Assembly: GCA_963704905.1 (NCBI GenBank)
Contig: CAVPHZ010000001.1
Coordinates: 259,438 to 323,437 of the forward strand
Origin: Candidatus Chisholmbacteria bacterium
GTDB taxonomy: Bacteria; Patescibacteriota; Microgenomatia; UBA1400; Chisholmbacteraceae
Direction of reading: 5' to 3'
DNA length: 64,000 nucleotides
A program made the translations under genes and the position numbers. Shown piece by piece: positions 8,872 to 60,668 of the stretch. The notes beneath the pieces are model-generated. The model was given only the letters and a program-made list of their open reading frames with translations. It did no database searches and was not told where the DNA came from. Within the stretch, counting starts at the first letter, position 1; the number at the start of each line of letters is the position of its first letter.

Positions 8872-9998
8872 TCTGCTTTCAGGAACAGCTTCTCGTATTT
8901 AATCATAGTTTGGTGATGATTAAATACCTTTTTAACTTTTTCTGCATGATGGGCGTATTTTCTTCTATTTGTTAGAACCTCACTGATTCCATCTGCAATC
9001 GCTCTTGGATTTTCTGATTCAACGAGTACTCCCATCCTCGTTTTTTGGATTACCCAACGAGCTCCGGGAATGTTGGTGCAAACTACTGGTACTCCATGAA
9101 GCATTGCTTCAACTTGAACTGAAGGGAAGCAATCTGACTTTGAAGGGAGCACAAAGACATCAAGCATCTCATAAAATGCAGCAAGTTTTTTTTCATCTCC
9201 TATAAGACCGAGTAAAATAATTCTATTTTTATATTTGTTTATCAATGGTTCTATTTTTTTCCAGTAATGTTCATAGGTTATTTTTGTTTCTCCGGAAAAC
9301 ACGAACAGCGTGTTTGCGTGTTTTTTTAAAACAAACGGTATTGATTGAAGTAGATACTCAACCCCTTTCTCCTCAACGAATCTCCCAGCAAAACCTACTA
9401 TCTTATGATTGCTGTTAATCTTGCTTCGTATCCATTTCCATTCTGCTACTCCTGGTTTCTCGATTGTTACGATTGGAGGAATGACAACCCACTTCTGCTG
9501 ATGAGATTTCAATACATTGGATTGTTGGGCATAATCTTGAGTTTGTATGATAATTTTTTCGGCTCGATTCAAGGCATAAGTTGATAATTGTTGATACAAC
9601 TTCATGATTGCAGTGTTTAGAGAGCCTGATGGTAAGAGAAGATCGCCATTGTGTATGACATACAGAGGTTTACTTGTTCTTTTTGTCAAGGTTGCTATGG
9701 CAGCGATTTCAGCTAGTGGAAGATAGACAATAATTCTATCGGCACTTTTTACAAGATGCTGAAATTGGATGAGAAAGGACGGTGCAATTTGGGTTCTGCT
9801 TACCCTGAGCATCACAGGAGATCTGTGCACTTTTACATTTCGTATAGTTTCTTGAATAGCTAATTCATTTGTGTGTTGGGTGCAGAGAACCTCAACGTCA
9901 TGTCCTCTATTGGCAAGCCCTTCTGCCAATCGGGCAGCATAGCGAGTTAGTCCAGTCCAGTGAGGTCGATAGTACGTGAGGGTGAAAAGCAATTTCAT
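8868..9998 (-). CDS. Glycosyltransferase family 4 (GT-B, retaining)
   Basis: 376 aa; N-terminal GT4-like domain (YYRPHWTGLTRYAARLAEGLANRGHDVEV) and C-terminal E-x7-E region FPSVQVEAMLHGVPVV. Confidence 0.75.
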   Translation of the reverse strand: MKLLFTLTYYRPHWTGLTRYAARLAEGLANRGHDVEVLCTQHTNELAIQETIRNVKVHRSPVMLRVSRTQIAPSFLIQFQHLVKSADRIIVYLPLAEIAAIATLTKRTSKPLYVIHNGDLLLPSGSLNTAIMKLYQQLSTYALNRAEKIIIQTQDYAQQSNVLKSHQQKWVVIPPIVTIEKPGVAEWKWIRSKINSNHKIVGFAGRFVEEKGVEYLLQSIPFVLKKHANTLFVFSGETKITYEHYWKKIEPLINKYKNRIILLGLIGDEKKLAAFYEMLDVFVLPSKSDCFPSVQVEAMLHGVPVVCTNIPGARWVIQKTRMGVLVESENPRAIADGISEVLTNRRKYAHHAEKVKKVFNHHQTMIKYEKLFLKAD

Positions 9999-10429
9999 TG
10001 CACTATTTGGTTTAGGTTTAATCTATTTGCATCTGCATGAATGATATGCACTTTAGAACATTTGCTTCGAAGGTAGTTCACTAGGGGAAGGTCGTCATCA
10101 ATAAAAATGTGTAAGTTCAATTTCTTTATCATCTTCTCTTTGAATAAGTGAGGTTGATGATTGTGTTCATTGATGACTATTTTCATAAACCAATGATCCA
10201 GGTGATTCTGTTTCAGCCATTCATCTGTCCTGTTTTTGAGAAAGTTATATCTACTTGAAACAATGAATAATTGATGTTTATTCATTCCAACAAGACGTTT
10301 GATAAGAATGATATTTTCTTTAATTGGTGGTCGAAGCAATGGATGGTGGCTTAGCCAACGAATGCGCTGCTCAACTTTAGTTGCTGGAAAACGATAGGCT
10401 AGGTTGGTTTTTTTATGATCTCGCACCAA
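9995..10429 (-). CDS. Hypothetical protein with HAD-like C-terminal motif (HIFIDDDL) but no N-terminal DxD; possibly truncated
   Basis: 144 aa ORF. An internal Met (MNKHQ...) at 10285 is an alternative start. Overlaps the start of the next + strand gene. Confidence 0.2.
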   Translation of the reverse strand: MVRDHKKTNLAYRFPATKVEQRIRWLSHHPLLRPPIKENIILIKRLVGMNKHQLFIVSSRYNFLKNRTDEWLKQNHLDHWFMKIVINEHNHQPHLFKEKMIKKLNLHIFIDDDLPLVNYLRSKCSKVHIIHADANRLNLNQIVQ

Positions 10430-12693: not shown

Positions 12694-12699
12694 CTTTGC

Positions 12700-13767
12700 T
12701 TACTGAGTGTAAAACAACTTATTGACATACTCGTGGACTTCTTGCCAAGAATTATCTCTTCCAATTAGTATCCATTGCCCATCGTAAAGAGATGTCGGCG
12801 GATTTATGAGTAAACCGTCTTCATCCGCTGTTTGCTCTTGCAATAAACCTGTATGGATCGTTTGGTTTCTTGCCTTTAAAGCAAGCTTGGCAAGTGATAA
12901 ATATTCAGGTTCTGTGAGGTCTGTTTCTACTGAATCCGAGTATGTTTGAGTAAGTTCCCTCAGCTTTCCTGGGGAGAAAATCGTGTCCAGTGAAAGAACT
13001 TTATCTTTAAAGGCTGCAATTACTTGCTGTTGCCTTTGAGAACGGGCAAAATCTGTGCCTTGCTCTCCTTCGGCGTTGCGTGAGCGAACGAATTTTAATG
13101 CTCTTTCTCCGCTCATTGTCTGTAGTCCAGCATCGAAACGGAGGTGTTCATATCGCAGTTCCTCTGGTTCTGCGTTTTCCATTCCAGGGGTCGGGTATTT
13201 GAAGTCGTCAAAACTTTCAAGGACATTTACTTCGATCCCACCCACTAGATCGACGGCTCGCCTGAACCCATCAAAATCAAGGATGACTACATAGTGGATT
13301 GGTTGTCCAATTACCTCTTCAACGGCTGATTTAGATAGCACCAAACCGCCCCCGTCTCGTTTTTGTTCTCCGTAATAGTAGGTTGCGTTTATCTTCGTTT
13401 TCAGAGAGTCTATCCAGATATCTCTGGGTATGGAGAGCGTGGTTGTATCCGCAGAACTGAGGTTTATTGAAGTAACAATGATACTATCTGTTAACTCCGC
13501 CCCGTCAAGAATCACGCCTCCAATTCCAAGCAAGAGGATGTTTGTTCTTCCTTTTGTAGAGCGTAGTACTCCTTCCGGATCTCTGACTATGGAAAAGGCA
13601 GTCGCAGGACCCTGCATTAGATTTTTTATGAAACTAACGGTTGGCCGGAGCGTTGCATACAGAGTAAACATTCCCAGCGCTAGTACAGTGGCTAGAAATG
13701 TACCACGAACGAAATTTTTATGTCTGGTCAGTTTTCGTTTGATTTTACTTAGAATATGCTGATTCAT
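12700..13767 (-). CDS. LytR-CpsA-Psr (LCP) family glycopolymer phosphotransferase
   Basis: N-terminal TM then the LCP core (NILLLGIGG...DSIIVTSIN...LSIPRDIWIDS...HYVVILDFDGFRRAVDLVGGIEVNV). Start set at ATG 13765-13767, which makes an ATGA overlap with the tpiA stop; the track's 13812 start would overlap tpiA by 49 nt. Confidence 0.75.
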   Translation of the reverse strand: MNQHILSKIKRKLTRHKNFVRGTFLATVLALGMFTLYATLRPTVSFIKNLMQGPATAFSIVRDPEGVLRSTKGRTNILLLGIGGVILDGAELTDSIIVTSINLSSADTTTLSIPRDIWIDSLKTKINATYYYGEQKRDGGGLVLSKSAVEEVIGQPIHYVVILDFDGFRRAVDLVGGIEVNVLESFDDFKYPTPGMENAEPEELRYEHLRFDAGLQTMSGERALKFVRSRNAEGEQGTDFARSQRQQQVIAAFKDKVLSLDTIFSPGKLRELTQTYSDSVETDLTEPEYLSLAKLALKARNQTIHTGLLQEQTADEDGLLINPPTSLYDGQWILIGRDNSWQEVHEYVNKLFYTQ

Positions 13768-14474
13768 CTTTGCTTGAGTGCTTGATGGGCTAATTCCAAC
13801 ATTGCTATCCATTCCTTGGCATTAAGACTTGCACTTCCAGGTAGCACTCCGTCGATGCTCTCTTCTTTCATAAATGTTTGGATGTTTCTTGCTTTTATGC
13901 TTCCACCATATATAACTGTCTTAACTCCGCTGTCTGATTTGATCATTTGAATCGTTTCAACAACTTCGCTTATTGGCGCTGCTTTTCCTTCTCCAATTGG
14001 GCCATCTTGTTTACTAATAGCCTCAGGGGGTTCATACATGATTATTGCGTCAGTTATTACAGCCGTATCTAAGGCTAAAAATTGCTTTTTCCAATTGTCT
14101 TTATGCACTGCGATAATTGGTGTAATCCGGTTGTCTAATGCCTGCATCGCTTTTGCTGCTACCGCTTGTACTGATTCGGAGAAGTACGTGTATCTCTCCG
14201 AATGGCCAAGAATTGCATATTTTACAGTATTTGAAACCATACGGGCTGTAATTTCGCCAGTGTAAGCACCATCTCCATATGGAGACAGATCCTGTACACC
14301 TAAGGTTAACTCAGGGTATTGAGTTGAAAAAAGATCAATATGAATAAAAGATGGACAGAGGACAATTTCAAGGTCATTGCCAGTCGCTGGTGTTTTTCCT
14401 TTAACGTCATCAATCCAGATTTGAGCTTCTTTGAGCGTCTTGTTTGCTTTCCAATTTCCGATAAGATATTTCAT
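13764..14474 (-). CDS. tpiA: Triosephosphate isomerase
   Basis: MKYLIGNWKANKT..., GHSERY, and C-terminal YGGS motifs typical of TIM. Confidence 0.9.
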   Translation of the reverse strand: MKYLIGNWKANKTLKEAQIWIDDVKGKTPATGNDLEIVLCPSFIHIDLFSTQYPELTLGVQDLSPYGDGAYTGEITARMVSNTVKYAILGHSERYTYFSESVQAVAAKAMQALDNRITPIIAVHKDNWKKQFLALDTAVITDAIIMYEPPEAISKQDGPIGEGKAAPISEVVETIQMIKSDSGVKTVIYGGSIKARNIQTFMKEESIDGVLPGSASLNAKEWIAMLELAHQALKQR

Positions 14475-41127: not shown

Positions 41128-41889
41128 TTACTTTTTTTTGGGGGGGGTGTATTTGAAGTTGTATTCTTTTTCATAAAGGCGAATAATTCCTTTTGGGGTG
41201 CTTTTTGCTCGAATCTCGCCATTGAATAACCAAATAGCTCGATTGCAGATTTTTTTCAGTAACTCAAAAGAGTGTGTAGCAATAATTATTGTTTTTCGTT
41301 TTTTCCTAAACTCGTTAATTTTATCTAGTGATTTTTGTTTGAAATTATTATCCCCAACAGAAATATTTTCATCTAGAATAAGAACTTCTGGTGAGGCATG
41401 AATAGCAATGGCAAAACTTATTCGTAGCTTCATTCCGTCTGAGTATGTATATAATGGCGCATCGATAAACCCACCGATGTCCGCAAAGGTTGTAATGCTT
41501 TTTAGTTTTTTTACGATTTCATTTTTATCCATTCCAAGCAATAAACCATTCAAGAAAATGTTTTCTTCCCCGGTTAAATCTGGGTGAAACCCAGCTCCAA
41601 GTTCAATGAGGGATATAATTTTATGCTCACAGAGAATGCTACCGTACGTAGGGGTTGTTATCCCTGCCATAATCTTAAGAAGGGTTGTTTTTCCTGATCC
41701 ATTTGCCCCGAAGATACCAACTGAGTCTCCTTTAAATACTGTTAAGTTTATGTCCCTTAGGGCGTAGAATTCTTCAGTTTTTTTTCTTTTGAAAATATTT
41801 TCTACTAGCGTAGGTTTCTCGTGATGAACGACATACTTCTTTCCAATGTGCTTAAGCTTAATGATAGTTTCTCTCATTTTTACAACCAA
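41128..41889 (-). CDS. ABC transporter ATP-binding protein, Wzt/TagH/KpsT type (glycan export)
   Basis: Walker A GANGSGKTTLLKIMAGI, signature YSDGMKLRISFA, Walker B LILDE. Confidence 0.8.
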   Translation of the reverse strand: MVVKMRETIIKLKHIGKKYVVHHEKPTLVENIFKRKKTEEFYALRDINLTVFKGDSVGIFGANGSGKTTLLKIMAGITTPTYGSILCEHKIISLIELGAGFHPDLTGEENIFLNGLLLGMDKNEIVKKLKSITTFADIGGFIDAPLYTYSDGMKLRISFAIAIHASPEVLILDENISVGDNNFKQKSLDKINEFRKKRKTIIIATHSFELLKKICNRAIWLFNGEIRAKSTPKGIIRLYEKEYNFKYTPPKKK

Positions 41890-42662
41890 TCAACGAAGTA
41901 TGGACTTTCCCTTATGAATATGTAGATCCCAACACATATAACAACCATGCTTATCACTAAATTGGTCATCATCAGTTGAACATTTATTAATCCTTGATTC
42001 AAAATTGCCATATGAAATAACTCAAAAATACTTGTAAGAGGGTTAATTAAAAATAGCTTATGTAAAGAATCTGGGATGATACTTAAGTTATAAATAATTG
42101 GTGTTATATAGAACCACAAGATTAGCGCTGATTGAATAAAAAAGTTTATGTCTCTAAAGCGCACCTGGAGGCTTGATGTGATTAGAGACAAACCAATCGT
42201 AAACATTAGCAGCCATACAAGAGCTGGTAACATTATAAGTATCTCGGGAAATAGGAGTTTGTTGGTTAATAATAAAAATATTCCTAGCAAAAATAGTGAA
42301 ATTAAAAGGTGGATAAAGTTAGAGAATATCATTGAAATCGGTATTACTTCCTTTGAAAATTTCGTTTTTTGCAGTAATGATCGCTCATTAACGAAACTTG
42401 GGGTAGTCTTAGTTACTGAGAGTAGAAAAAATTGCCATGGTAATAATCCTGTAAATAAAAATAGGAAATAGTCAGGTATTCTAATATACAAAGAAAAAAT
42501 TAGACCGATGATTGTCATTTGAAGCAAGGGGTTAAGTAAAACCCATAAAAAACCAAATATTGCCCTTTTATATCGAGCTTTTATCTCTCTTTCGGTCATC
42601 ACCCAAAGAAAGTCTAGATATTTATTCATATTTTCTCTAGTTTTTTTTCTACGAATGAGCAT
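41880..42662 (-). CDS. ABC-2 type permease (Wzm/TagG/KpsM-like)
   Basis: 260 aa, 6 TMs, ABC-2 family pattern; overlaps the ATPase gene by 10 nt. Confidence 0.75.
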   Translation of the reverse strand: MLIRRKKTRENMNKYLDFLWVMTEREIKARYKRAIFGFLWVLLNPLLQMTIIGLIFSLYIRIPDYFLFLFTGLLPWQFFLLSVTKTTPSFVNERSLLQKTKFSKEVIPISMIFSNFIHLLISLFLLGIFLLLTNKLLFPEILIMLPALVWLLMFTIGLSLITSSLQVRFRDINFFIQSALILWFYITPIIYNLSIIPDSLHKLFLINPLTSIFELFHMAILNQGLINVQLMMTNLVISMVVICVGIYIFIRESPYFVDWL

Positions 42663-43526: not shown

Positions 43527-44279
43527 TTGTATATCAAAGTAATTTTGCTACAATTTTTTCCTATGAACATCTTTGTTCGTCGTATTCGGTATCTGCCCGT
43601 CCTGAGCATGATAAGTTTATTTCTTTTTGCACTGCTTTTTTCTCCATCATCGACATCGGGAACTATTGACCAAGTTTCGCTTTCATTTCTTCGCCAACCG
43701 ACACCAATTCTGGCAACAGAGTCGAAATTTACTGAGCAGGTAGAAAGTTGGGAAGAATCGATTGATTTTTCAACCGTTTACGTTAAAGATGACTCGTATG
43801 AGCTTGGTACTGAAGTCATCACTCGGGAAGGGTCGCCGGGAAAAAAGCGAGTAATTCAAACTACCGTAACCTACGATGGAGAAGATTACTCGACTTCAAT
43901 TGAGGAAGATATTCTGATAGAGGCTGAGAATCAGGTGATTGTACAAGGAACAAAAATCGTATTGAGAACAATAGAGAGTGAGTACGGAAATCTCACGTAT
44001 TCACAGACCTTTTCAAATATGTGGGCGACGAGTTATGACTCGACTTGCTCTGGGTGTAGTACTACAACAGCGACGGGAATGAAGCAGGGTTATGGAGTGG
44101 TTGCGGTTGATCCAACTGTAATCCCACTTTATAGCAAAGTCTTCGTCCCAGGCTATGGCATTGCTCTTGTGGGTGATGTTGGTGGATCGATTAAGGGAAA
44201 TAGAATCGATCTTGGGTATGACTCTCTTGGCGGACAGTGGAAAGCACATTCTGTAGATGTGTATCTGCTTGTCGATTAA
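43527..44279 (+). CDS. G5 + 3D domain cell-wall protein (YabE/RpfB-like)
   Basis: G5-like block YELGTEVITREGSPGKKRVIQTTVTYDGEDY...; C-terminal 3D domain (ATSYDSTCSGCSTTTATGMKQGYGVVAVDPTVIPLYSKVFVPGYGIALVGDVGGSIKGNRIDL). Confidence 0.6.
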   Translation: MYIKVILLQFFPMNIFVRRIRYLPVLSMISLFLFALLFSPSSTSGTIDQVSLSFLRQPTPILATESKFTEQVESWEESIDFSTVYVKDDSYELGTEVITREGSPGKKRVIQTTVTYDGEDYSTSIEEDILIEAENQVIVQGTKIVLRTIESEYGNLTYSQTFSNMWATSYDSTCSGCSTTTATGMKQGYGVVAVDPTVIPLYSKVFVPGYGIALVGDVGGSIKGNRIDLGYDSLGGQWKAHSVDVYLLVD

Positions 44280-44323
44280 TTTTTTTAGCTCTCAGAATCC
44301 CCTGTATAATAAAGCTTATCACT

Positions 44324-45361
44324 ATGGTCATTCGTGAAGTTCGCATTGACGAAAAATCCCCTTTTAATTTACTTGCTCAGCATCCGGTTCAAAGTTGGGA
44401 ATGGGGGGAGTTTAAGAAAAAAACTGGAGTTGAAGTTGTCCGTTTAGCTTCTTTTCATAAAGAAACTATGCAGGCTGGGTATCAGATTAGTTTTCACCCA
44501 GTTCCGAAGACGTCATACAGTGTTGGCTACTTTCCTAAAGGCCCCCTTCCAGATGATGATCTCCTTGAAGCACTTATCGATGTTGGACGTAGGCGAAATG
44601 CGCTTTATATAAAACTCGATCCAAATGTCCAAACAAAAGATGGTCAGGAAGTTTTTCAAGAACTTTCGAAGAAATTTGATCTTCGATTAGGGCGTACGGT
44701 ATTTACACCTAATACTTTTTTTATTGATCTCACAAAATCTGAGGACGAGTTGCTAGCGTCCATGAAATCAAAGTCTCGTTACAATATACGTTTGGCAAAG
44801 CGACATGGAGTTACCGTCCATGAAGATAACAGCACGAAAGCTATTGAAACCTATCTTCGATTAACTCGAGAAACTGCTACACGGCAAGGATTCTATGCCC
44901 ATGATGAAGAGTATCATCGACTTCTGTGGGAAATTCTTCACACTTCAATGGAACGTGCTGGTCAAGATCCAATCGCCCGCCTTCTGGTTGCGAAGTATAC
45001 AAAGGAAATTCTTGTCACTTGGATGGTCTTTGTCTTTCATAAAACCCTCTATTATCCTTATGGTGCTTCGTCGAGCAAACATCAGAATCTCATGGCAAGT
45101 AATCTTATGATGTGGGAGGCTATGCGTTTTGGAAAGACGCTTGGCTGTCAGTTGTTTGACCTTTGGGGTTCGCTTGGATCGAATCCAGATCCAAAGAACC
45201 CATGGTATGGATTTCATCGATTTAAAGAGGGGTTTGGCGGGGAGCTCATTCATTTTGTAGGAACCTACGATTTGGTCATTCAACCACAGCTCTATCCTCT
45301 GTTTCGGTTTGCTGAAGATGCCCGGTGGAAGGTGTTGCGCATCCTTTCAAAATTCCGATGA
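44324..45361 (+). CDS. FemAB-family peptidoglycan interpeptide-bridge aminoacyltransferase (FemX/MurM-like), copy 1
   Basis: ...HPVQSWEWGEFKKKTG...FYAHDEEYHRLLWEI...LYYPYGASSSKHQNLMASNLMMWEAMRFGKTLGCQLFDLWG... = FemAB family. The track's 44237 start overlaps the upstream gene; ATG at 44324. Confidence 0.65.
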   Translation: MVIREVRIDEKSPFNLLAQHPVQSWEWGEFKKKTGVEVVRLASFHKETMQAGYQISFHPVPKTSYSVGYFPKGPLPDDDLLEALIDVGRRRNALYIKLDPNVQTKDGQEVFQELSKKFDLRLGRTVFTPNTFFIDLTKSEDELLASMKSKSRYNIRLAKRHGVTVHEDNSTKAIETYLRLTRETATRQGFYAHDEEYHRLLWEILHTSMERAGQDPIARLLVAKYTKEILVTWMVFVFHKTLYYPYGASSSKHQNLMASNLMMWEAMRFGKTLGCQLFDLWGSLGSNPDPKNPWYGFHRFKEGFGGELIHFVGTYDLVIQPQLYPLFRFAEDARWKVLRILSKFR

Positions 45362-46258
45362 TTGACTTACGACAATCTCCTTTCTACGCAGAGCATATGA
45401 AGAAACTTGGGTGGATTGTTGAGACTCTTCCTAGTCTCTCTCGGTCTTCTTCTCGTAACTCTTCTCCTCGAATATTTGCTTACATTCGCAGATTACCTTT
45501 TCTACCTATCTCTATTATGAAAATTCAACGCTTTACCCCTATTCCAGATTTCGGTAAGATCGTCGCATTAAACCGAAAACATCGAGTGTTCTCGATCACG
45601 CTTGAGCCTGGACTACTCAATAAAATAGACAAAGTTCATTTTACCAAAGCAATAACAAGGTTTAAATATCGATCATTGAATTGGCCGTTACAGCCAACTT
45701 CAACTGTCCGCGTAAATTTGAAACAATCTCTGCAAGTACTTCTAAAGGGATTGGGTTCTGATGCGAGAGCGAGTGTTCGTAAAGCTAAGCAGACTTGCAA
45801 GGTAAAGTTCATTTCTACTGATGACCGTTTAGAAATTGAGCAGTTTTATGAGTTTTGGAAACAAAATGGAAAAGGGTATGTGCCATCACAGAAAGAGTTT
45901 GATAGTTTACTTCAGGCTTTTGAAAACAATGCGACTCTTGTCTTAGTTTTTAAAGATCGTGAACTTCTTTCTGGTGTTGTCATTCTTTTTCATGATCGGC
46001 AGGCATATTATTACTATGCAGCAACTTCGTCAAAAGGCAGGAGAGAGTTTGCAGGTTACTACTCAACTTGGAGAGCAATTCTTGAAGCTAAGCGACGAGG
46101 ATGTTTGTGTTTGATTTTGAAGGTATCTATGATGAGCGGTTTCCAAAACTTAAGCGGTGGAAAGGATTTTCTCGGTTTAAGAAGAAGTTTGGCGGAGAGA
46201 TCATTCGTTATCCTTTACCTGTAGGTCGGTTTCGTTTACCAATTTCTTTTTCTTTATA
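45358..46258 (+). CDS. FemAB-family aminoacyltransferase, copy 2, carrying an apparent -1 frameshift near 46100 (pseudogene or sequencing error)
   Basis: ATGA-coupled to copy 1. The track ORF ends ...KRRGCLCLILKVSMMSG...; a different frame from ~46100 gives MFVFDFEGIYDERFPKLKRWKGFSRFKKKFGGEIIRYPLPV..*, the canonical FemAB C-terminus (DFEGI ... FK..FGG), ending at 46258. Confidence 0.5.
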
Positions 46259-53012: not shown

Positions 53013-53840
53013 GTGATGATTGACACACACACGCATTTAAATTTTCAGGCCTTTGAGAATGACTGGCAAGCGGTTGTAGACAGAGCCATCGATACTGGCG
53101 TGGGTAGTATGATCGTGGTTGGAACAGATGTTGTAAGTAGTCGAAAAGCGATTGAAATGGCAAGTGCTCATCCCTCGCTGTTTGCCAGCGTCGGTGTACA
53201 TCCGCATCATGCAAAAGGTATAGTCGAGCAATCCAAAGCAGTGAAGAGTGAAATAATGCAGATTCGATCACTCCTCAAACATCCTCGAGTAGTGGCAGTT
53301 GGTGAGGTTGGATTGGATTATCACATCTATCAATATTCGAGATATTCTCAACCTTACAACAATGATGAGTCGAATACGCTTACAACACTTCAAAAAGAGC
53401 TATTTATTGCTCAGGTTCAGCTGGCTGTTGAATTTCATAAACCACTTATTATTCATAGTCGAGATGCAAAGGAAGAGGTATTGGATCTTCTTTTATCTGA
53501 GGTACCTTCTTTAGGAAGTGATCCTAGAGGTGTGTTCCATTGTTTTGAAGGGAGTAAAAAGTACCTCTTGAGAATACTAGATGCAGGTTTTTTTGTAAGC
53601 TTTACGGGAAATATTACCTATAGCGAAGATCGAGAAAAAGTAGCCTCGCTGGTTCCTCTCAATAAACTTCTTCTTGAAACTGACTCGCCGTTTATGACCC
53701 CTATGCCTCTGCGGGGAAAGCGTAATGAACCTTCCTATGTTAAAATTGTTGCGGAAAAGCATGCTCTATCTAGAGGTGTTCATTTTAATGAAGTGTTAAA
53801 ACACACTCAAGAAAATGCTCTTGAGTTATTTCATCTATGA
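53013..53840 (+). CDS. tatD: TatD-family metal-dependent hydrolase/DNase
   Basis: MIDTHTHLNF..., GEVGLDYH, ...IIHSRDA..., FHCFEG, ETDSPFMTP. Confidence 0.8.
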   Translation: MMIDTHTHLNFQAFENDWQAVVDRAIDTGVGSMIVVGTDVVSSRKAIEMASAHPSLFASVGVHPHHAKGIVEQSKAVKSEIMQIRSLLKHPRVVAVGEVGLDYHIYQYSRYSQPYNNDESNTLTTLQKELFIAQVQLAVEFHKPLIIHSRDAKEEVLDLLLSEVPSLGSDPRGVFHCFEGSKKYLLRILDAGFFVSFTGNITYSEDREKVASLVPLNKLLLETDSPFMTPMPLRGKRNEPSYVKIVAEKHALSRGVHFNEVLKHTQENALELFHL

Positions 53841-55324
53841 GTAATTTAAAAAAAAGCGGTATTGGACGACCACCCCGTTGGCTGGAATTCATCCCAGGTT
53901 TGTTTTCCTGGTCACTCATCTTGTTTCCTTTTTGGGGATCTTTGATTGTTCCAGTTGCGGTAGCCTACTATGTGCTTGCGTTTGCGGTGTATTGGCTCTA
54001 TCGCTCAGTGTCTACCGCAGTACTTTCTGTCATTGCTCATTTTCGCATGCAATCAGCTCAGGTATATGATTGGATGAGTGACTTAGCAGTTTTTCCAGAT
54101 TGGAAAGACATTCATCATGTGATACTCATTCCTACTTACAAAGAACCTTTACATACTCTGAAACGCACATTAAAAGGAATTGAGAAACAAACGTTACCAA
54201 AAAATCAAATAAGTATTGTCGTTTCATTTGAAGAAAGAGAAGGAGGGGTAGGTAAGAGTAAATCTCATGCTCTTCAAAGGGAATTTGGAAAAGTCTTTAA
54301 AAACTTTTTTATCACCTTCCATCCCGATCTTCCCGGTGAGGTGAAGGGAAAGTCCTCAAATACATCCTGGGCAGCAAAGTTTGTAAAAAAAGAACTGGTT
54401 GATAATCAAGGGTACGATATTTCCAAAATGACAGTAACGAGTGAAGATGCAGATGCGGTGCTTCACTCGAATTATTTAGCAGCTTTAACGTATTCTTTTC
54501 TTGATCATCCTCATAGACACCGTCGAATTTGGCAAGCATCGATCGTTTTTTATAACAACATTTGGAGCGTACCAGCACCAATACGAGTATTGGCAACGAT
54601 TTGGAGTGTCGTTCAGATGTATATTCTCATGCGTCAAGATAGGCTTATTAATTTTTCTACTTACTCTACTAGCCTGAAGCTCATTCATGAAATAGGTTAT
54701 TGGGATGTCGATGTCATTCCGGAAGATTATCGATTATTTTTTAAAGCGTATTTTCATTACAAAGGAGACATTGAAGTTGAGCCTATATTTTTACCTGTTT
54801 ATGCTGATGCTGCTCAGTCAACAAGTTATTGGAAAACGATGGTGAATCAATATGAACAGGTAAAGCGGTGGGCATGGGGTGTATCTGATGATCCGTATAT
54901 TATTCAAAAATGGCTGGAAGCTAAAGATATTTCTTTTTGGGAAAAGACGATTCGAGTTGTTAAAGTTCTCGAGGATCACTTTCTATGGCCGGTTAACTGG
55001 TTTGCAATTACCATCGGGGCACTACTTCCTCCTTTAATCAATAAGGAATTTTCTCGAACAATACTCGGGAAAACTTTGCCACAGGTATCATCATTTATAT
55101 TAACGCTTTCTCTCGTTTCTTTGGTCGCAATAATATTTATTGATGCACGCCAACGACCACCACGACCAGCTGAAGTGTCGCTTCTCAAGAGACTTTTTCA
55201 ACCATTTGAGTTTTTGCTACTCCCTATTGTGGGATTTTTCTTTAATGCTCTTCCAGGTATTGATGCACACACCAGGCTGATGTTTGGAAAATACATTGAA
55301 TATAAAGTAACGGAGAAGGTGTAA
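53837..55324 (+). CDS. Membrane-embedded processive GT2 (cellulose/PNAG-synthase-like, QxxRW motif)
   Basis: N-terminal TMs, GT2 core (HVILIPTYKEP...TSEDADAVL), Q-x-x-R-W as QVKRWAWG, C-terminal TMs. ATGA overlap with tatD. Confidence 0.65.
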   Translation: MSNLKKSGIGRPPRWLEFIPGLFSWSLILFPFWGSLIVPVAVAYYVLAFAVYWLYRSVSTAVLSVIAHFRMQSAQVYDWMSDLAVFPDWKDIHHVILIPTYKEPLHTLKRTLKGIEKQTLPKNQISIVVSFEEREGGVGKSKSHALQREFGKVFKNFFITFHPDLPGEVKGKSSNTSWAAKFVKKELVDNQGYDISKMTVTSEDADAVLHSNYLAALTYSFLDHPHRHRRIWQASIVFYNNIWSVPAPIRVLATIWSVVQMYILMRQDRLINFSTYSTSLKLIHEIGYWDVDVIPEDYRLFFKAYFHYKGDIEVEPIFLPVYADAAQSTSYWKTMVNQYEQVKRWAWGVSDDPYIIQKWLEAKDISFWEKTIRVVKVLEDHFLWPVNWFAITIGALLPPLINKEFSRTILGKTLPQVSSFILTLSLVSLVAIIFIDARQRPPRPAEVSLLKRLFQPFEFLLLPIVGFFFNALPGIDAHTRLMFGKYIEYKVTEKV

Positions 55325-55383
55325 TTTATTATTGACATCAAAAATAACTTAGATTCTTCGTTCTCTGATGATAGAATGAGTTC

Positions 55384-56901
55384 ATGAACTTGGATCAGTC
55401 TTCTTTGTCGAACGTATTCATCTCCTTTGTTAAACGTTATAAATTTCTTTTTCTCTTACTTCTATTTATATTTTTTCTGCGAATTCCATCATTGATGGAG
55501 CCGAATCGATATGCCGATGAGGATATTTATTTAACCCTCGGTCATGGGATGCGACAGGGATTGGTGTTTTATCGTGATATTCATGACAACAAACCCCCCC
55601 TCCTTTACGTGGTTGCTGGTCTGGCTGGAAATTTGTTTTGGTTTCGATTCATTCTTTTGGTTGTCCATGCCATCGGCGTAGTGATTTTTTATAAACTTGC
55701 AGAGCTCGTTTTTGATAACAGAAGATGGGCGATCTTGATTTCAACGCTCATTTTTGGATTGTTCTCCACGCTTCCTCCACTTGAAGGAAACATTGCTAAT
55801 GGGGAAAATTTTATGATCGTATCGGCTTTGGCTGGTGTGTACCTCCTTTATCGAGCTTTAATTAATCTAAACGAACATGATCGAATATGGGTTTACCCAC
55901 TCGCTGGGTTTCTTTTTTCAATTGCATTTCTTTTTAAAATACCGATTGCATTTGATTTTGCTGGGATAGTTCTCTTTTGGTTGTTTTTTGTTGAACCGGA
56001 ACTACGCCTCACTCAACGTCTGGCTCGTCTATTTTCAAAAGAGTTTATTTTATTGATCGGTGGTTTTCTGATGCCAATACTTCTAAGTATTGTGTATTAC
56101 GCTTTTAACGGAGCCTTCGAACCCTATGTACGTTCAGCACTCATGCAAAATATTGGCTACCTCTCTAGTTGGGGTGGGGAGGGTGGTTCTGTTCTTCAAA
56201 ATCCACTTGTTTGGAGAGGATTGGTTGTTATTGGTTTAACGGGTTTGCTGCTCATTTTTTCAAAACGCATATCTCTAGCATCCCGATTTGTCTTGGTATG
56301 GACTGTATTTTCAATGTATGGAGCGCTTCTCTCAAGCCGGCCATATCCCCACTATTTATTGGAGCCTTTAGTTCCCGTATCTCTCCTTCTGATGTTGGTG
56401 ATTATTCAGTTTCTTGAACGAAGAGCTATTTCGTTGAGTATATCTATTCTTGTTTTAGTCCTCATTATCGTTTCGTATTATCAAATTGATTTTTGGGAGT
56501 ATGAAACGCTCTCGTATTACAGGAATTATGTAGATTATGCTTCAGGAAAAAAGAGTTGGGATGACTATCTAAAATATTGGGGAGCGGGGAGGAACTATCA
56601 AGTAGCGTCTTATCTTCAACACCATACCAGCGAGAATGATCGAGTGTATGTTTGGGGGACTGAGCCAGCGATTTACTCAGTGTCAGGTCGATTACCTGTC
56701 AGTCGATATACTGTTGCGTATCATGTTGTTGACTTTGATGCGTATGACCATACGATTCAAGCAATTCAATCAGAAAAGCCTATGTATATTGTCGTGTTTG
56801 AAGACGGACCTGATTTTGAAGCGTTACATGCGCTTCTTGAAAAAGGATATTTGTTGGAAACAACCATTGATGGAGTGTCTGTCTACCGAATTCTGTATTA
56901 A
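55384..56901 (+). CDS. GT-C glycosyltransferase, ArnT/PMT (GT39/GT83)-like
   Basis: 505 aa polytopic; first-loop motif NRYADEDIYLTLGHGM... as in ArnT/PMT-family enzymes. Confidence 0.6.
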   Translation: MNLDQSSLSNVFISFVKRYKFLFLLLLFIFFLRIPSLMEPNRYADEDIYLTLGHGMRQGLVFYRDIHDNKPPLLYVVAGLAGNLFWFRFILLVVHAIGVVIFYKLAELVFDNRRWAILISTLIFGLFSTLPPLEGNIANGENFMIVSALAGVYLLYRALINLNEHDRIWVYPLAGFLFSIAFLFKIPIAFDFAGIVLFWLFFVEPELRLTQRLARLFSKEFILLIGGFLMPILLSIVYYAFNGAFEPYVRSALMQNIGYLSSWGGEGGSVLQNPLVWRGLVVIGLTGLLLIFSKRISLASRFVLVWTVFSMYGALLSSRPYPHYLLEPLVPVSLLLMLVIIQFLERRAISLSISILVLVLIIVSYYQIDFWEYETLSYYRNYVDYASGKKSWDDYLKYWGAGRNYQVASYLQHHTSENDRVYVWGTEPAIYSVSGRLPVSRYTVAYHVVDFDAYDHTIQAIQSEKPMYIVVFEDGPDFEALHALLEKGYLLETTIDGVSVYRILY

Positions 56902-56968
56902 TTCATTGTAATCTTCTTTTCGATACGCTTTTCTCAAGAATTACCCTTGTGTGTGATATACTTTCGCC

Positions 56969-57370
56969 ATGTCTTCTCGAAGCCCAACTCGCCGACACGC
57001 TCATACTGTTCTTTCGCTCCGTGAGTCTTTTGCTCTCCTCTGGCGGGATCCTGTTGTAGGATTATCGTTTCGGATAACAGTTTTGCTTCTCGGGTTTTTT
57101 ATTTTTATTATGATGTTTTTTTATTGGAGGCTTCCTCCTGAGATACCTTTTGCATATTCACGTCCCTGGGGTGTTGGACAGCTTGTTCCACTGATATTTC
57201 TGTTTGTCATCCTCTCTTTAGTTGTGCTTATTATTCTGATCAACGCTTTGCTTGCAACATTCCTTTTTTCCAGAGAACAACTTCTTGCAAGGATACTGGT
57301 TTGGATAAGTGCTTTGGTTGTCTTACTTGTTGATATTACGGTATTGCGCGTCGTGTTACTGGTTACATAA
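56969..57370 (+). CDS. Hypothetical small membrane protein
   Basis: 133 aa, 3 predicted TMs. Confidence 0.3.
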   Translation: MSSRSPTRRHAHTVLSLRESFALLWRDPVVGLSFRITVLLLGFFIFIMMFFYWRLPPEIPFAYSRPWGVGQLVPLIFLFVILSLVVLIILINALLATFLFSREQLLARILVWISALVVLLVDITVLRVVLLVT

Positions 57371-57374
57371 ATCC

Positions 57375-58481
57375 ATGGTATCGAGCAACTTATTTTCTCA
57401 AATATTCTTATTTCCGCTTCTCATCACATTTATACTCGCATTTATCTTTACGCCAGTCGTTCGGCGAGTTTATCTCTTACGTAAATGGCTTGATGATCCT
57501 GCTATTCAATCTCATCCGAAGGTCGTCCATACCTACCCAGTTCCCCGAGGGGGTGGTCTGGCTATCTATGGTGCTGTTGCAATCAGTGCTCTCATTTTTC
57601 TTGGTATAGATAAGCAAGTGATCGGAATTCTTCTCGGTGGATTTGTTATTGCACTGGTTGGTTTTTTTGATGACCTTCATGATTTAAACCCTTATCTTCG
57701 TTTATTTCTTGGATTTCTGGCTGCGGCATTGGTTGTCTTTAGTGGAGTAGGGGTTGCGTTTATCACTAATCCGTTTGGAGAAGGGGTTCTTCATCTCGAT
57801 TGGCCGAGAATTACTTTTTTTCTTTTTGGAGAAATGCATACTCTCTGGGTCATTTCTGATTTGTTTGCTCTGGTATGGATTGTGTGGAATATGAACATGG
57901 TGAATTGGTCAAAGGGTCTTGATGGACAACTTCCTGGAATCGTGGTTGTAGCTGCAATTGTGATTGCACTTCTATCTTTCCGGTTTACTGAAGATGTTAC
58001 TCAATGGGAAGTTTCTATTCTGGCAGCAATCACGGCTGGGGCGTACTTGGGTTTTCTTCCCTGGAACTTCTATCCTCAAAAAATTATGCCTGGGTATGGT
58101 GGAGGAGCATTGGCAGGATTCCTTCTCGGTACATTAGCTATTTTATCTGGAGCCAAGGTAGCGACAATGATTTTGGTCCTTGGAATCCCAACAATGGATG
58201 CTGTTTATACAATTGTCCGAAGAATGGCCTCAGGTAAATCTCCTGTTTGGGGGGATCGCGGTCATTTTCATCATCGTTTATTGGATCTGGGTTGGGGTAA
58301 GCGTCGAGTGGCCATATTTTATTGGATTGTGAGTGGTATCCTTGGAATGCTGGCACTTCAATTGAATGCTCGACAGAAATTGTTTACAATCGTGTCGCTT
58401 GCTTTGGTATTAGGAGGTATTCTTTTATGGCTCAGTCAATTTATCTTCTCGTCAAAAGCGCCAGACCGCGACAGTGGCTGA
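57375..58481 (+). CDS. Polyprenyl-phosphate N-acetylhexosamine-1-phosphate transferase (MraY/WecA family)
   Basis: ...VGFFDDLHDLNPYLRL..., ...NWSKGLDGQ..., GDRGHFHHRLLDLGW motifs of the MraY/WecA superfamily. Start set at the first ATG after the upstream stop (track start 57309 overlaps). Confidence 0.7.
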   Translation: MVSSNLFSQIFLFPLLITFILAFIFTPVVRRVYLLRKWLDDPAIQSHPKVVHTYPVPRGGGLAIYGAVAISALIFLGIDKQVIGILLGGFVIALVGFFDDLHDLNPYLRLFLGFLAAALVVFSGVGVAFITNPFGEGVLHLDWPRITFFLFGEMHTLWVISDLFALVWIVWNMNMVNWSKGLDGQLPGIVVVAAIVIALLSFRFTEDVTQWEVSILAAITAGAYLGFLPWNFYPQKIMPGYGGGALAGFLLGTLAILSGAKVATMILVLGIPTMDAVYTIVRRMASGKSPVWGDRGHFHHRLLDLGWGKRRVAIFYWIVSGILGMLALQLNARQKLFTIVSLALVLGGILLWLSQFIFSSKAPDRDSG

Positions 58482-59368
58482 AAAACTTTGCCCTTTTTGC
58501 GGCTCTCATTTTTTCTGGAAAGCTGTTTGTGGTTCAAAGCTTTGTTTCTGTCATATGGGCATTTGTCATTTTTTCGATTCTCACTTCTTCTGTATATCTT
58601 TTTAATGATGTCGTTGATGCTCCTCTAGACCGTAAACATCCTTACAAACGACTTCGCCCAGTTGCATCTGGAAAACTTCCTTTATCACTTGCACTTTTTG
58701 TTGCAATTCTAGGATTTTTTATTTCACTTGCATTTGCACGAGGTTTATCGCTTTTCTTTTTTCTTGCCTGTCTTGCATATCTCGTCCTTCACGTTCTTTA
58801 TTCCTTGTGGATCAAACATATTCCAATTCTTGATCTCCTGGCGATTGCAACCGGTTTCATTATTCGGGTATACGCCGGCGCGCTGGTTATTGATGCTCAT
58901 ATGAGTGTTTGGTTCTTACTCACCGTCATCTCCTTGTCCTTGTTTTTGGCCGTCGGAAAAAGACAGAGCGAGAGAACACTTCTCATTGGCCACGGGGAAG
59001 AGCTCTCTTCGCACCGTAGTACATTAGTCCGATACAGCAACAGGATTCTTGATGTATATACCAGCATGTTTGCAAATACAGTATGGATCACCTATGCCAT
59101 GTTTACTTTTCTTGAGCCTCAACGGGTTCCAACACGCCCTAAGGTGGTTGGCTTCTTGTCAGTTCTTCCTCATACCTTGGTTGCGCAAAAGTGGCTCATG
59201 GCCACTGTGCCAGTTGTTGTCTATGGAGTGATGCGATACCTCCAACTCATTTATGAGAGTAATAAGGGAGAAAGTCCTGATGAAGTTCTGGTTTCTGATC
59301 GACCTTTGCTTGGAGCAGTTATTGTATGGGCAATAATGGTTATTGCGGTTATCTATGGAATTGGATAG
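58427..59368 (+). CDS. UbiA-family prenyl-phosphate transferase resembling decaprenyl-phosphate phosphoribosyltransferase (DPPR synthase)
   Basis: KSARPRQWLKNFALFAALIFSG...SVYLFNDVVDAPLDRKHPYKRLRPVASGKL = UbiA first Asp-rich motif in a DPPR-synthase-like context. The start (MAQSIYL...) overlaps the upstream gene by ~55 nt. Confidence 0.55.
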   Translation: MAQSIYLLVKSARPRQWLKNFALFAALIFSGKLFVVQSFVSVIWAFVIFSILTSSVYLFNDVVDAPLDRKHPYKRLRPVASGKLPLSLALFVAILGFFISLAFARGLSLFFFLACLAYLVLHVLYSLWIKHIPILDLLAIATGFIIRVYAGALVIDAHMSVWFLLTVISLSLFLAVGKRQSERTLLIGHGEELSSHRSTLVRYSNRILDVYTSMFANTVWITYAMFTFLEPQRVPTRPKVVGFLSVLPHTLVAQKWLMATVPVVVYGVMRYLQLIYESNKGESPDEVLVSDRPLLGAVIVWAIMVIAVIYGIG

Positions 59369-59400: not shown

Positions 59401-60288
59401 TCACTTCACAAGCTTGGCATAACGACCAGAGATCCAACCTTCCTGCCCATCACTGAGAAGGATTTTGTGCCAGCCGCTTTCATTGGTATCTAGATAACTA
59501 TATCTTTCACCTGGATTTACTTTCGCTACTTCGTTGTCTGCTGCAGTTGTTGGTTCTTTGCGAACCCGTAACCATCCTGTGGGAGTTTCAAGAATTTCAA
59601 TATACGGTTTATCTACTTTTGCAGAGGGTGATGCAGGTTTTGATTCTTCTGGTGTGGGTTTTGGTGACTCATCGTCCTCTGCTTCGGGTTTTTCTTCTCC
59701 ACTGGGAGAGGCTTGTGCAATAGGTTCTCGGGCAAGTTGTACATCCACCGTAAGCTTGTGTCCTGAAACGGTTTTTATTTGAATTTGCCGTTGCTTATAC
59801 CCTGGCGCTGAAACGGAAAGCGTGTGTTCTCCTTCCTCCACGTTTTTTACTTGGAGAGGAGTAAATCCCTTTGGCTGTCCATCCAATTTTACTGAAGCGT
59901 TGTCTGGTATTGATATGACCGCGATCTCCACTGCGTCGCTGGTTGCTAGTGGTTCTAGTGTTAAGGTTGCACCACTTGCTTCCTGCCTGTCTTGCGCAAA
60001 ATCATAGGTAATGACTGTGGTAATGCCGGGGTAAAGTTTGACTGTCGTCTCCCACTCTATTAATCCTTCTCCATCAGGAACGAGGCGAACATTGTAGTCT
60101 TGGCTCTTTAATTCCTGACTCTTAAACGGTGTTTCTCCGACTTTTTCGTCGTTTAAAAATACCGCTGCATTCGGATTTGTAGTTATTTGGATTGCTGCTT
60201 GTTGTCGCTGTAAAAAACCTGGAAGCAAACTGCATCCCGATAAGATAACGGCAGAAAAAATTGCGATAAATACCGCTTTTTTTCTCAT
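59401..60288 (-). CDS. Lipoprotein with PEGA domains and C-terminal SH3-like domain
   Basis: MRKKAVFIAIFSAVILSGC lipobox; PEGA-like repeats (VFLNDEKVGETPF..., VKLDGQPKGFTPLQ...); C-terminal GWLRVRKEP...GWISGRY. The track start 60327 lies upstream of the probable Met. Confidence 0.55.
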   Translation of the reverse strand: MRKKAVFIAIFSAVILSGCSLLPGFLQRQQAAIQITTNPNAAVFLNDEKVGETPFKSQELKSQDYNVRLVPDGEGLIEWETTVKLYPGITTVITYDFAQDRQEASGATLTLEPLATSDAVEIAVISIPDNASVKLDGQPKGFTPLQVKNVEEGEHTLSVSAPGYKQRQIQIKTVSGHKLTVDVQLAREPIAQASPSGEEKPEAEDDESPKPTPEESKPASPSAKVDKPYIEILETPTGWLRVRKEPTTAADNEVAKVNPGERYSYLDTNESGWHKILLSDGQEGWISGRYAKLVK

Positions 60289-60575
60289 AGAGGGCCTTAT
60301 GATAACAGAAATTCTTATCTGGTACAAGAAAATCTTTGCTTTTCGTGTTGGGTGGCTGATTCTGGTAGCGTCGATGAGGAAACGGAGATAAAAGCTGAGA
60401 TCTAGAAAGGTGTTGTTTAATTTCGATTTTCCAAAGCTAAGATAGCGATGGCCAAGAAGATAGCCGAAAAAAAGAATGGGAAATACATCTCTTTATTCTA
60501 AACTGACCTTTTTAAACTCCGTTAGATACTGGGAGCTGGTTTTTCTCGAGTTTCTGCTATAATTTTGAGGTAGTT

Positions 60576-60647
60576 GGCCTGGTGGCGAAGTGGTAACGCT
60601 GCGGTCTGCAAAACCGCGATGCGCGGGTTCGATTCCCGCCCAGGCCT
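60576..60647 (+). tRNA. tRNA-Cys (anticodon GCA)
   Basis: 72 nt. Acceptor stem GGCCTGG/CCAGGCC perfectly paired, discriminator U, anticodon stem GCGGT/ACCGC with loop CUGCAAA (GCA), T-arm GCGGG-TTCGATT-CCCGC. TATAAT at 60558-60563 sits 12 nt upstream. Confidence 0.85.
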
Positions 60648-60668
60648 CAATTATGTAGAATCTTGTAC

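Follow-up and report, generated by a model that had tools for sequence, protein, structure and literature searches.

The DNA analyzed here is a 64,000-nucleotide stretch of contig CAVPHZ010000001.1 (assembly GCA_963704905.1) from a Candidatus Chisholmbacteria bacterium of the Microgenomates group of the Candidate Phyla Radiation (CPR), and we refer to this whole stretch as the window. Five co-directional, tightly packed plus-strand genes span window positions 53837-59368, and we asked whether they could form a module for a surface glycan that is built on a lipid-linked pentose. The cell envelope of CPR bacteria (Patescibacteria) is essentially uncharacterised because almost no CPR organisms have been cultivated, and lipid-linked pentose chemistry is known above all from the wall of mycobacteria and is a drug target there. 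A preliminary description, made from the letters of the sequence, had named four enzymes here: a family-2 glycosyltransferase with a QxxRW motif (GT2), a GT-C transferase, an MraY/WecA-type transferase of the PNPT family (GT4) and a UbiA-family protein. All four classes were recovered on the plus strand where it had placed them, but it overlooked a fifth gene, coding for a conserved three-helix membrane protein (sTM) that is fused to GT4 in relatives.

Coordinates are given in Table 1. The mechanical list of open reading frames (ORFs) had over-extended two genes, GT4 to a GTG at 57309 and the UbiA gene to a TTG at 58322; the true starts are the ATG codons at 57375 and 58427, and public gene calls agree exactly with all five lengths in the table. 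The ATG of GT2 overlaps the stop codon of the preceding tatD gene by 4 nt, followed by gaps of 59 nt (GT2/GT-C), 67 nt (GT-C/sTM) and 4 nt (sTM/GT4), and the GT4 and UbiA genes overlap by 55 nt both in the window and in two related loci (L001 and L002). The module has an ordinary composition (GC 0.38-0.44) and lies outside a low-GC glycan island at 16-44 kb. The five genes are real, strongly conserved and not chance ORFs. A promoter and terminator scan found sites no more frequently than in shuffled sequence and is thus uninformative on operon structure, and tRNA and Rfam scans found only a tRNA-Cys, outside the module. Pfam was scanned with 54 ORFs of the window, 43 of them lying upstream of 50.3 kb (at least 150 aa long) and 11 within 50.4-60.3 kb; the GAPDH, PGK and M23 peptidase genes and a UMP-kinase fragment at 60.7-64 kb were recognised only from their sequence and from orthologous loci.

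Table 1. Positions in the 64-kb window of the five clustered genes and of other features named in the text.
Feature	Position	Strand	Length	Context
GT2, HAS/BcsA-like QxxRW synthase (predicted)	53837-55324	+	495 aa	five-gene cluster
GT-C, ArnT/OST-like (predicted)	55384-56901	+	505 aa	five-gene cluster
sTM, three-helix membrane protein	56969-57370	+	133 aa	five-gene cluster
GT4/PNPT, MraY/WecA family	57375-58481	+	368 aa	five-gene cluster
UbiA-family, PPPRS/DPPRS-like (predicted)	58427-59368	+	313 aa	five-gene cluster
PEGA + SH3 surface protein	59401-60327	-		convergent with the UbiA gene
tRNA-Cys(GCA)	60576-60648			between the PEGA gene and GAPDH
PilN and PilO, type IV pilus assembly genes	1120-2373
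Second GT-C neighbourhood	4264-13812
PMT_2 GT-C gene	5441-7162			second GT-C neighbourhood
PMT_2 GT-C gene	7159-8871			second GT-C neighbourhood
GT1	8868-9998	-		second GT-C neighbourhood
DUF2298/'YYY' membrane protein	10381-12693			second GT-C neighbourhood
LCP (LytR-CpsA-Psr) ligase	12700-13812	-		second GT-C neighbourhood
Low-GC glycan island	~16385-42662
Wzm/Wzt-type ABC-2 exporter	41128-42662			glycan island
Two adjacent FemAB-family genes (peptidoglycan cross-bridge type)	44237-46224

The UbiA-family protein has multiple predicted hydrophobic segments and matched Pfam PF01040 (4.8e-15, 56 bits, cut-off 34.2). Among NCBIfam models, those for decaprenyl-phosphate phosphoribosyltransferase (DPPRS) scored 203.7 bits (NF008977) and 201.9 bits (NF008978), as compared to 49.3 bits for the best model outside the phosphoribosyltransferases, a generic prenyltransferase, and to 31.7, 20.2 and 22 bits for heme O synthase, UbiA/4-hydroxybenzoate prenyltransferase and DGGGP synthase, respectively. 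A sequence search of the PDB matched only Mycobacterium tuberculosis Rv3806c entries, 8j8j (3.7e-32) and 8j8k (3.4e-22), and no other UbiA-superfamily structure at E<=0.01. The earlier assignment of this protein as DPPR-synthase-like, rather than MenA-, UbiA-, heme O- or DGGGP-like, was borne out by these results, and neither the model scores nor the PDB search placed it with quinone or heme O prenyltransferases. This was further supported by individual residues. The structure of Rv3806c has defined which residues contact Mg, ribose, 5'-phosphate and pyrophosphate (PMC10994848), and we mapped the set R22, K28, Y70, N73, D77, K87, R90, Q135, Y138, K143, Y157 and K208 through the 8j8j alignment. 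R22, K28, Y70, N73, D77, K87, R90, Y138 and K143 are identical in the window protein, and their equivalents (R13, K19, Y57, N60, D64, K74, R77, Y125 and K130) are invariant in 22 CPR homologues. Q135 is changed to H122 and Y157 to F144, and K208 aligns to a Ser with an invariant R197 as neighbour; Phe at the Y157 position is also found in some mycobacteria (PMC10994848). The motif Y57..N60-D61..D64...D68..K74..R77 is encoded at nt 58595-58660, with NDVVDAPLDRKHP at nt 58604-58642, and the second Asp-rich motif of prenyltransferases is converted to G-K178-R179-x-x-E182, the equivalent of the loop mutated in Citrobacter youngae ORF15 (PMC11127046). Since the match to the 482-aa model NF006088 is limited to its UbiA half (positions 191-385), no phosphatase or other extra domain is fused to the protein. 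Some homologues are called decaprenyl-phosphate phosphoribosyltransferase by NCBI and JGI, including, at NCBI, those of 57-60% identity. Taken together, the UbiA homologue is clearly predicted to be a polyprenyl-phosphate phosphoribosyltransferase (PPPRS).

GT2 and GT-C gave no Pfam or NCBIfam match of their own, even at E<=10, and single-sequence and profile searches against PDB sequences returned noise only, so that fold prediction was needed. Their class assignments are based on the families of their homologues (PF13632 and PF13231) and on AlphaFold models compared by Foldseek. For GT2 more than 4266 homologues were found; identity is 62-82% among the best 120, and PF13632 is present in many. 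The motifs D204xD206 (TSEDAD), E296-D297 (PEDY) and Q341xxR344W345 (QVKRW at aa 341-345, nt 54857-54871) were recognised, and the residues D204/D206, E296/D297 and Q341/R344/W345 do not vary among 39 homologues. The model (pLDDT 84, pTM 0.84) had as its best PDB match the hyaluronan synthase (HAS) of Chlorella virus (7sp7, 2.4e-10), followed by BcsA (5ej1/4p00; TMq 0.53 for 4p00) and Xenopus HAS1, and the minimal CesA-like PcManGT (6yv7), which does not polymerise, also matched well. GT2 is thereby modelled as a membrane-integrated family-2 glycosyltransferase of the hyaluronan/cellulose-synthase type, with a GT-A domain on a transmembrane (TM) bundle. The GT-C protein has ~11 TM helices and a small C-terminal alpha/beta domain, and its acidic motif Y43-A-D45-E46-D-I-Y49 (RYADEDIY) is located in the first outer loop after TM1, with D45/E46 invariant in 39 homologues. 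PF13231 (PMT_2) and PF27757 occur in its homologues, some of which bear the name ArnT-family or GT39. Its model (pLDDT 92) matched AglB (3waj, 8.7e-6), ArnT (5f15, TM-score 0.54/0.51), STT3, DPY19, PglB, Pmt4 and ALG6, while EmbA/B was reached at E=0.72 only. With invariant motifs, predicted folds and Pfam families of homologues in agreement, the class labels proposed earlier for both proteins hold.

GT4 matched PF00953 over profile positions 2-159 of 160 (3.1e-26, 92.7 bits, cut-off 27), which agrees with the proposed MraY/WecA-type class, and its best PDB match was MraY (5jnq, 2.5e-10). It had also been called a polyprenyl-phosphate HexNAc-1-phosphate transferase, and that more specific name could not be upheld: the protein scored 67.5 bits with the WecA equivalog TIGR02380 (cut-off 326) and 54.4 bits with the MraY equivalog TIGR00445 (cut-off 192), and the canonical Mg-binding Asp is gone. 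The latter score also rules it out as the MraY of the cell. In an alignment to three MraY structures GT4 keeps DD (aa 99-100) and HFHH (aa 297-300), whereas the Mg-binding Asp of 'FMGDxGS' is replaced by Tyr ('IMPGYGGGA', nt 58083-58109) and the first Asp of 'DGLDG' by Lys ('KGLDG'). The Asp residues of these motifs are important in MraY and WecA. The same motif state was seen in 80 orthologues. An exhaustive search of 1.84 billion representatives gave 520 proteins at E<=1e-30, and the best 150 were aligned. In these the nearest relatives show 'WS(K/S/N)G(V/L)DGQ' together with 'MPG(Y/F)' or '(W/Y)GFGA', a minority of these nearest relatives keep 'PGD', and more distant relatives are canonical ('LDGLDGL' with 'GD' or 'GE'). 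Across the clade the Mg-binding Asp is thus mostly lost, being Tyr, Phe or absent, and Lys, Ser or Asn stands in place of the first DGxDG Asp, while DD and HxHH are kept at >=90%. One canonical relative (P0439) is located elsewhere, without a UbiA gene. P0367, a member of the clade, retains 'PGD' and is still paired with UbiA, which rules out the Asp loss as cause or consequence of the pairing.

The sTM protein has three predicted hydrophobic segments and no Pfam or NCBIfam match, even at E<=10, and is marked by a conserved loop, LPPxIP(L/F)xY..PWG..QL. About 22 of the GT4 relatives are longer (470-523 aa) through an extra N-terminal ~130 aa with LPxxIPLWY..PWG..QL, and in five such genes recovered as loci these residues match the sTM profile (E 1e-25 to 2e-12). 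The fusions mark sTM as a subunit or module that belongs with this PNPT clade, and not as a free-standing flippase; a flippase of GtrA or SMR type was also ruled out by the missing family match and by the number of helices. From the predicted segments and the positive-inside rule, the conserved loop is probably extracytoplasmic.

To compare neighbourhoods we used a scan of GTDB species representatives, in which 548 stretches encode a PPPRS relative, and analyzed the best 80 loci; only loci with enough sequence were scored for each gene, hence the differing denominators. The same neighbourhood was found throughout these 80. In 78 of 79 loci the gene immediately upstream of UbiA is GT4; sTM is present at the same position in 54/78, GT-C in 54/67 and GT2 in 51/60. 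The wider order, kept in Microgenomates, reads RmuC ... MetRS-TatD-GT2-GT-C-sTM-GT4-UbiA-<PEGA/SH3-<GAPDH-<PGK-M23. Conservation, expressed in bits per aa, was 1.43 for GT2, 1.27 for GAPDH, 1.18 for UbiA, 1.10 for GT4, 0.84 for MetRS, 0.60 for GT-C and 0.28 for sTM. GT2, PNPT and PPPRS would therefore be read from these comparisons as a constant triad, conserved like GAPDH, with a GT-C that is optional in cis. The triad survives rearranged flanks in three loci (L020, L043 and L068), and distant lineages with a fused sTM-GT4 (37-42% GT4 identity) keep the order GT2 - sTM-GT4 - UbiA, with or without the GT-C.

Two neighbours were rejected as members of the module. TatD, considered also as the missing phosphatase (see below), goes with MetRS and is absent from two loci where the triad remains (L083 and L087), and the PEGA/SH3 protein moves with the GAPDH-PGK block in L020, L034, L043 and L068, although its gene adjoins UbiA in 52/70 loci. 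Individual loci showed further variation. A single locus with a fused sTM-GT4 has a CYTH (triphosphate tunnel metalloenzyme) gene 3 nt after UbiA (L083:10440-11096), a possible phosphohydrolase partner. In L084:2998-4173 a HEPN/nucleotidyltransferase toxin-antitoxin pair and a small ORF are inserted between sTM-GT4 and UbiA, so this otherwise tight pair can be split. The sole exception among the 79 loci, from Chisholmbacteria (L006:498-3647), has GT-C, sTM and UbiA with no GT4 between them, either by a real deletion or as an assembly artefact of its 3.9-kb contig. Variable inserts between GT2 and GT-C/GT4 (L036:5110-6864, L027:6311-7495 and L016:5608-6909) comprise GlmS, for UDP-GlcNAc precursor supply, Acyl_transf_3 replacing the GT-C, and extra PMT_2-type GT-C paralogues. 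Many of the related metagenome-assembled genomes (L009, L011, L012 and others) are titled 'uncultured Pseudomonadales bacterium' despite a gene order identical to that of Microgenomates, apparently a placeholder or mislabel in third-party annotation assemblies.

We hypothesized that the block is a core envelope glycan module of Microgenomates-group CPR, built on a lipid-linked pentose donor, and in our judgement the chances for and against this are evenly balanced. PPPRS, by its sequence identity, would join phosphoribosyl pyrophosphate (PRPP) and polyprenyl phosphate to polyprenyl-phosphate-5-phosphoribofuranose at the inner face of the membrane, and the 5'-phosphate would be removed by an enzyme encoded outside the locus. 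The donor would remain polyprenyl-phosphate-ribofuranose because there is no epimerase in cis, following the published rule (PMC11127046), and would then be flipped outward. Outside the membrane a GT-C would transfer the pentofuranose, here most likely the adjacent ArnT-like 505-aa protein, and genomes without a GT-C in cis would use another of their many PMT_2-type paralogues. The linkage suggests as acceptor the surface polymer of the HAS/BcsA-like GT2 and/or a polyprenyl-diphosphate glycan primed by the atypical PNPT with sTM. Conservation of the triad at the level of GAPDH, together with its place in the core synteny, makes it probable that the product is a basic part of the wall or surface and not a decoration that varies between strains, and the likely product of the pathway is polyprenyl-phosphate-ribofuranose for a core envelope glycan. 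This is in line with published work, in which extracytoplasmic pentofuranosylation by PPPRS and GT-C was demonstrated experimentally, with ribofuranose as the default when a cluster has no epimerase (PMC11127046). If true, a core surface glycan in a whole class of CPR bacteria would contain ribofuranose, or one of its epimers, delivered by a lipid-linked donor.

Several results weigh against a lipid-linked pentose module. The equivalog cut-offs of the two best DPPRS models were narrowly missed (203.7 against 234 bits for NF008977, 201.9 against 207 for NF008978), and a third model, NF008976, gave 130 bits, below its cut-off of 474; with scores just below the curated cut-offs, the UbiA protein is a diverged member rather than a textbook equivalog. 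A 'complete pathway' had been proposed earlier, and this does not stand, as a 5'-phosphatase (HAD-PRP, PAP2), a flippase (MATE, SMR, GtrA) and DprE1/DprE2 or another epimerase were each absent from the cluster, from the conserved locus of relatives and from the 54 scanned ORFs of the window. GT4 is without a residue needed by canonical members, which makes a role as primer synthase uncertain. The GT-C is gone from the locus in Collierbacteria-type and other genomes, and elsewhere it is swapped for an Acyl_transf_3 O-acyltransferase or for PMT_2 paralogues on the opposite strand. A literature search found, among the papers it covered, no link between CPR, Patescibacteria or Microgenomates and decaprenyl or polyprenyl phosphoribose. 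Lastly, adjacency had been taken as evidence of shared function; the adjacency itself is real, but it counts for less than was assumed, because the synteny extends over housekeeping genes (RmuC, MetRS, TatD, GAPDH and PGK) and the GT-C is the least constant member.

This last point leads to the alternative that survives best, namely that the genes are neighbours only through a frozen core synteny, and that they serve separate pathways: GT2 would make an exopolysaccharide by itself, the GT-C would glycosylate proteins or glycans with a polyprenyl-phosphate-hexose donor synthesised elsewhere, and the PNPT/PPPRS pair would supply a further product. The conserved order from RmuC to M23 does include genes without a glycan role, the GT-C is dispensable in cis, related loci (L024 and L041) have separate pairs of a GtrB-like GT2 and a PMT_2 protein, and at least three other GT-C-like genes are found within the window. 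However, mere inheritance of an old gene order does not readily account for a GT4-UbiA overlap combined with adjacency in 78 of 79 loci, nor for a triad that outlasts rearrangement of both flanks and divergence to 37-42% GT4 identity, and all members are membrane glycan enzymes with polyprenyl-linked substrates or surface-polymer products. We consider this explanation unlikely, though one to be taken seriously.

A second alternative keeps the lipid-linked pentose and changes its identity. In an arabinan-type pathway, as in Corynebacteriales or for Pseudomonas pilin, DprE1/DprE2-like epimerases encoded elsewhere would give polyprenyl-phosphate-arabinofuranose for the GT-C. The set of PNPT, GT2, PPPRS and GT-C mirrors WecA, GlfT2, UbiA and Aft/Emb of arabinogalactan synthesis (PMC10994848), the window encodes an LCP ligase as well as a Wzm/Wzt-type ABC-2 transporter, and the inspected DNA is 64 kb of a 773-kb contig, which leaves room for such genes. 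Nevertheless, no FAD_binding_4/ALO or SDR gene was seen among the scanned window ORFs or in the corresponding locus of over 80 relatives, whereas in characterised and predicted systems the epimerases sit in the cluster (PMC11127046). The GT-C, moreover, resembles ArnT and oligosaccharyltransferases (OST) and not Emb, and GT2 is of the integral-membrane HAS/BcsA type and not GlfT2-like. An arabinan is in our view rather improbable, somewhat more so than a frozen gene order.

A third possibility concerns the PNPT itself. The unusual clade of the MraY/WecA family, Asp-less and with a fused or adjacent three-helix module, could have an activity that fills the missing pathway steps. In the boldest form of this idea, the Asp-less PNPT and sTM would work with PPPRS to process, flip or extend polyprenyl-phosphate-ribose-5-phosphate, replacing phosphatase and flippase, and the product would feed the HAS-like synthase for an essential, CPR-specific pentofuranose wall polymer; we hold this to be a speculative proposal with a small chance of being correct. 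A related version, in which PNPT and sTM act on the PPPRS product by 5'-dephosphorylation, phosphotransfer or flipping, or through an unusual lipid-linked phosphoribosyl intermediate, with no HexNAc-1-phosphate priming, is slightly more doubtful still. It would fit the near-obligate pairing and overlap of the genes, the lack of another candidate in cis for the missing steps, the loss of the canonical Mg-binding Asp and of one DGxDG Asp while DD and HxHH are kept, and the distinct architecture marked by the sTM fusion. Conversely, P0367 is paired with UbiA and still reads 'PGD', so the Asp loss is not tied to the pairing, such an activity is without precedent in the PNPT superfamily, and the probably extracytoplasmic sTM loop would be far from the PNPT active site. 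Finally, the glycan interpretation would be wrong if the UbiA homologue prenylated aromatic compounds or lipids in the manner of MenA, UbiA, heme O synthase or DGGGP synthase; this is hardly credible, as its membership of Pfam UbiA and the '4-hydroxybenzoate polyprenyltransferase' label that JGI automatically assigned to many homologues are set against a DPPRS score of 204 bits versus 49 or less, a PDB search without any other UbiA-superfamily structure, the retained Rv3806c-specific phosphoribose and 5'-phosphate ligands and the GKRxxE loop, and as CPR bacteria are, to our knowledge, without quinone-dependent respiration, so that a quinone prenyltransferase is not expected.

The remainder of the window is also rich in glycan genes. 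At least three further GT-C-like proteins are encoded there, besides Wzy-type proteins, an LCP ligase and an ABC-2 exporter, a gene set as expected of a monoderm that builds wall-linked glycopolymers. The two PMT_2 GT-C genes of the second GT-C neighbourhood directly follow the gene of an FAD oxidoreductase (NCBIfam PRK07233, 404 bits; Amino_oxidase), which could act on a lipid-linked sugar. The glycan island has a composition (GC 0.34-0.37) unlike that of the module and contains a Bac_transf initiating transferase, two Wzy_C proteins (one with TPR), an Alg14/Alg13-like pair and several GT1/GT2 genes, as well as two PIG-L deacetylases, NTP_transf_5, a radical-SAM MiaB-like protein, ATP-grasp, YdjC and methyltransferases, together with the ABC-2 exporter. 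The PEGA/SH3 protein next to UbiA has a Pro/Ser/Glu/Lys-rich linker containing SPSGEEKPEAEDDESPKPTPEESKPASPSAK, which could be an O-glycosylation target.

Compared with known systems, the proposed pentose module has its closest functional analogue, as far as the predicted functions allow, in the three-component system of C. youngae O1/O2, consisting of ORF15 (PPPRS-PRP), the MATE flippase ORF14 and the GT136 GT-C ORF12 (Kelly et al. 2024, PMC11127046). Both have a UbiA-fold PPPRS with N-D..D...D and (K/R)R..E loops, clustered with a GT-C, which in the window lies 1.5 kb upstream on the same strand. Like ORF12, this GT-C is ArnT-like, has an acidic/Tyr motif immediately behind TM1 and ends in an extracytoplasmic domain, and in both systems there is no epimerase in cis, from which the published rule predicts ribofuranose. 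In contrast to C. youngae, the PPPRS described here has no HAD phosphatase domain, the cluster has no gene for a flippase (MATE, SMR or GtrA), its GT-C is optional at the Microgenomates locus, and extra, more constant partners are found in the HAS/BcsA-like GT2 and the atypical PNPT with its three-helix subunit. The position also differs, core genome here and an O-antigen/serotype locus in C. youngae.

By sequence and structure matches, the closest relative of the PPPRS appears to be Rv3806c of M. tuberculosis, and the decaprenyl-phosphate-arabinose/arabinogalactan pathway of mycobacteria and corynebacteria (Rv3806c UbiA, Rv3807c, DprE1/E2, Rv3789, WecA, GlfT2 and Aft/Emb) shares with our cluster all four enzyme classes, PNPT, GT2, PPPRS and GT-C, the conserved substrate contacts and, within the same 64-kb window, an LCP ligase and an ABC-2 exporter. 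The differences are that DprE1/E2, PAP2 phosphatase and GtrA-like genes were not seen here, that the GT-C resembles ArnT/OST and not Emb/Aft, that the QxxRW synthase GT2 is integral to the membrane where GlfT2 is peripheral, and that the PNPT is the equivalog of neither WecA nor MraY. In Pseudomonas aeruginosa Pa5196/PA7, pilin is modified with D-arabinofuranose by a PPPRS, DprE1/E2 homologues and the GT-C TfpW (PMC11127046), another non-actinobacterial PPPRS that feeds a GT-C modifying a surface structure, as proposed here. CPR also encode type IV pili (PilN/PilO in the window), and a Pro/Ser-rich PEGA/SH3 surface protein adjoins the cluster, but neither epimerase genes nor a pilin gene are found at the locus, and a protein acceptor for the pentose would be pure speculation.

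At the level of single enzymes, GT2 resembles HAS and BcsA in size, in two N-terminal TM helices, GT-A domain, interface helices and C-terminal TM helices, and in DxD/ED/QxxRW, and differs in an identity of 10-16% and in having no PilZ domain and no BcsB partner. GT4 shares PF00953, the DDxxD and HxHH motifs and a ~10-TM core with MraY, WecA and TagO, whereas most of its clade has Tyr, Phe or no residue where the GD motif has Asp, and the first DGxDG Asp is replaced by Lys, Ser or Asn. An additional three-helix module is encoded upstream of it or fused to it, and its gene is paired with PPPRS instead of lying in a dcw or teichoic-acid cluster. The UbiA neighbourhood of the Lipocone paper is a different system. 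That such a combination should be unusual outside Actinobacteria can no longer be maintained, since systems of PPPRS and GT-C are widespread there (Kelly et al. 2024, PMC11127046) and the cluster itself recurs throughout Microgenomates. Judging from these comparisons, the enzyme types are known, and what appears to be new is the arrangement of the cluster and the odd PNPT partner.

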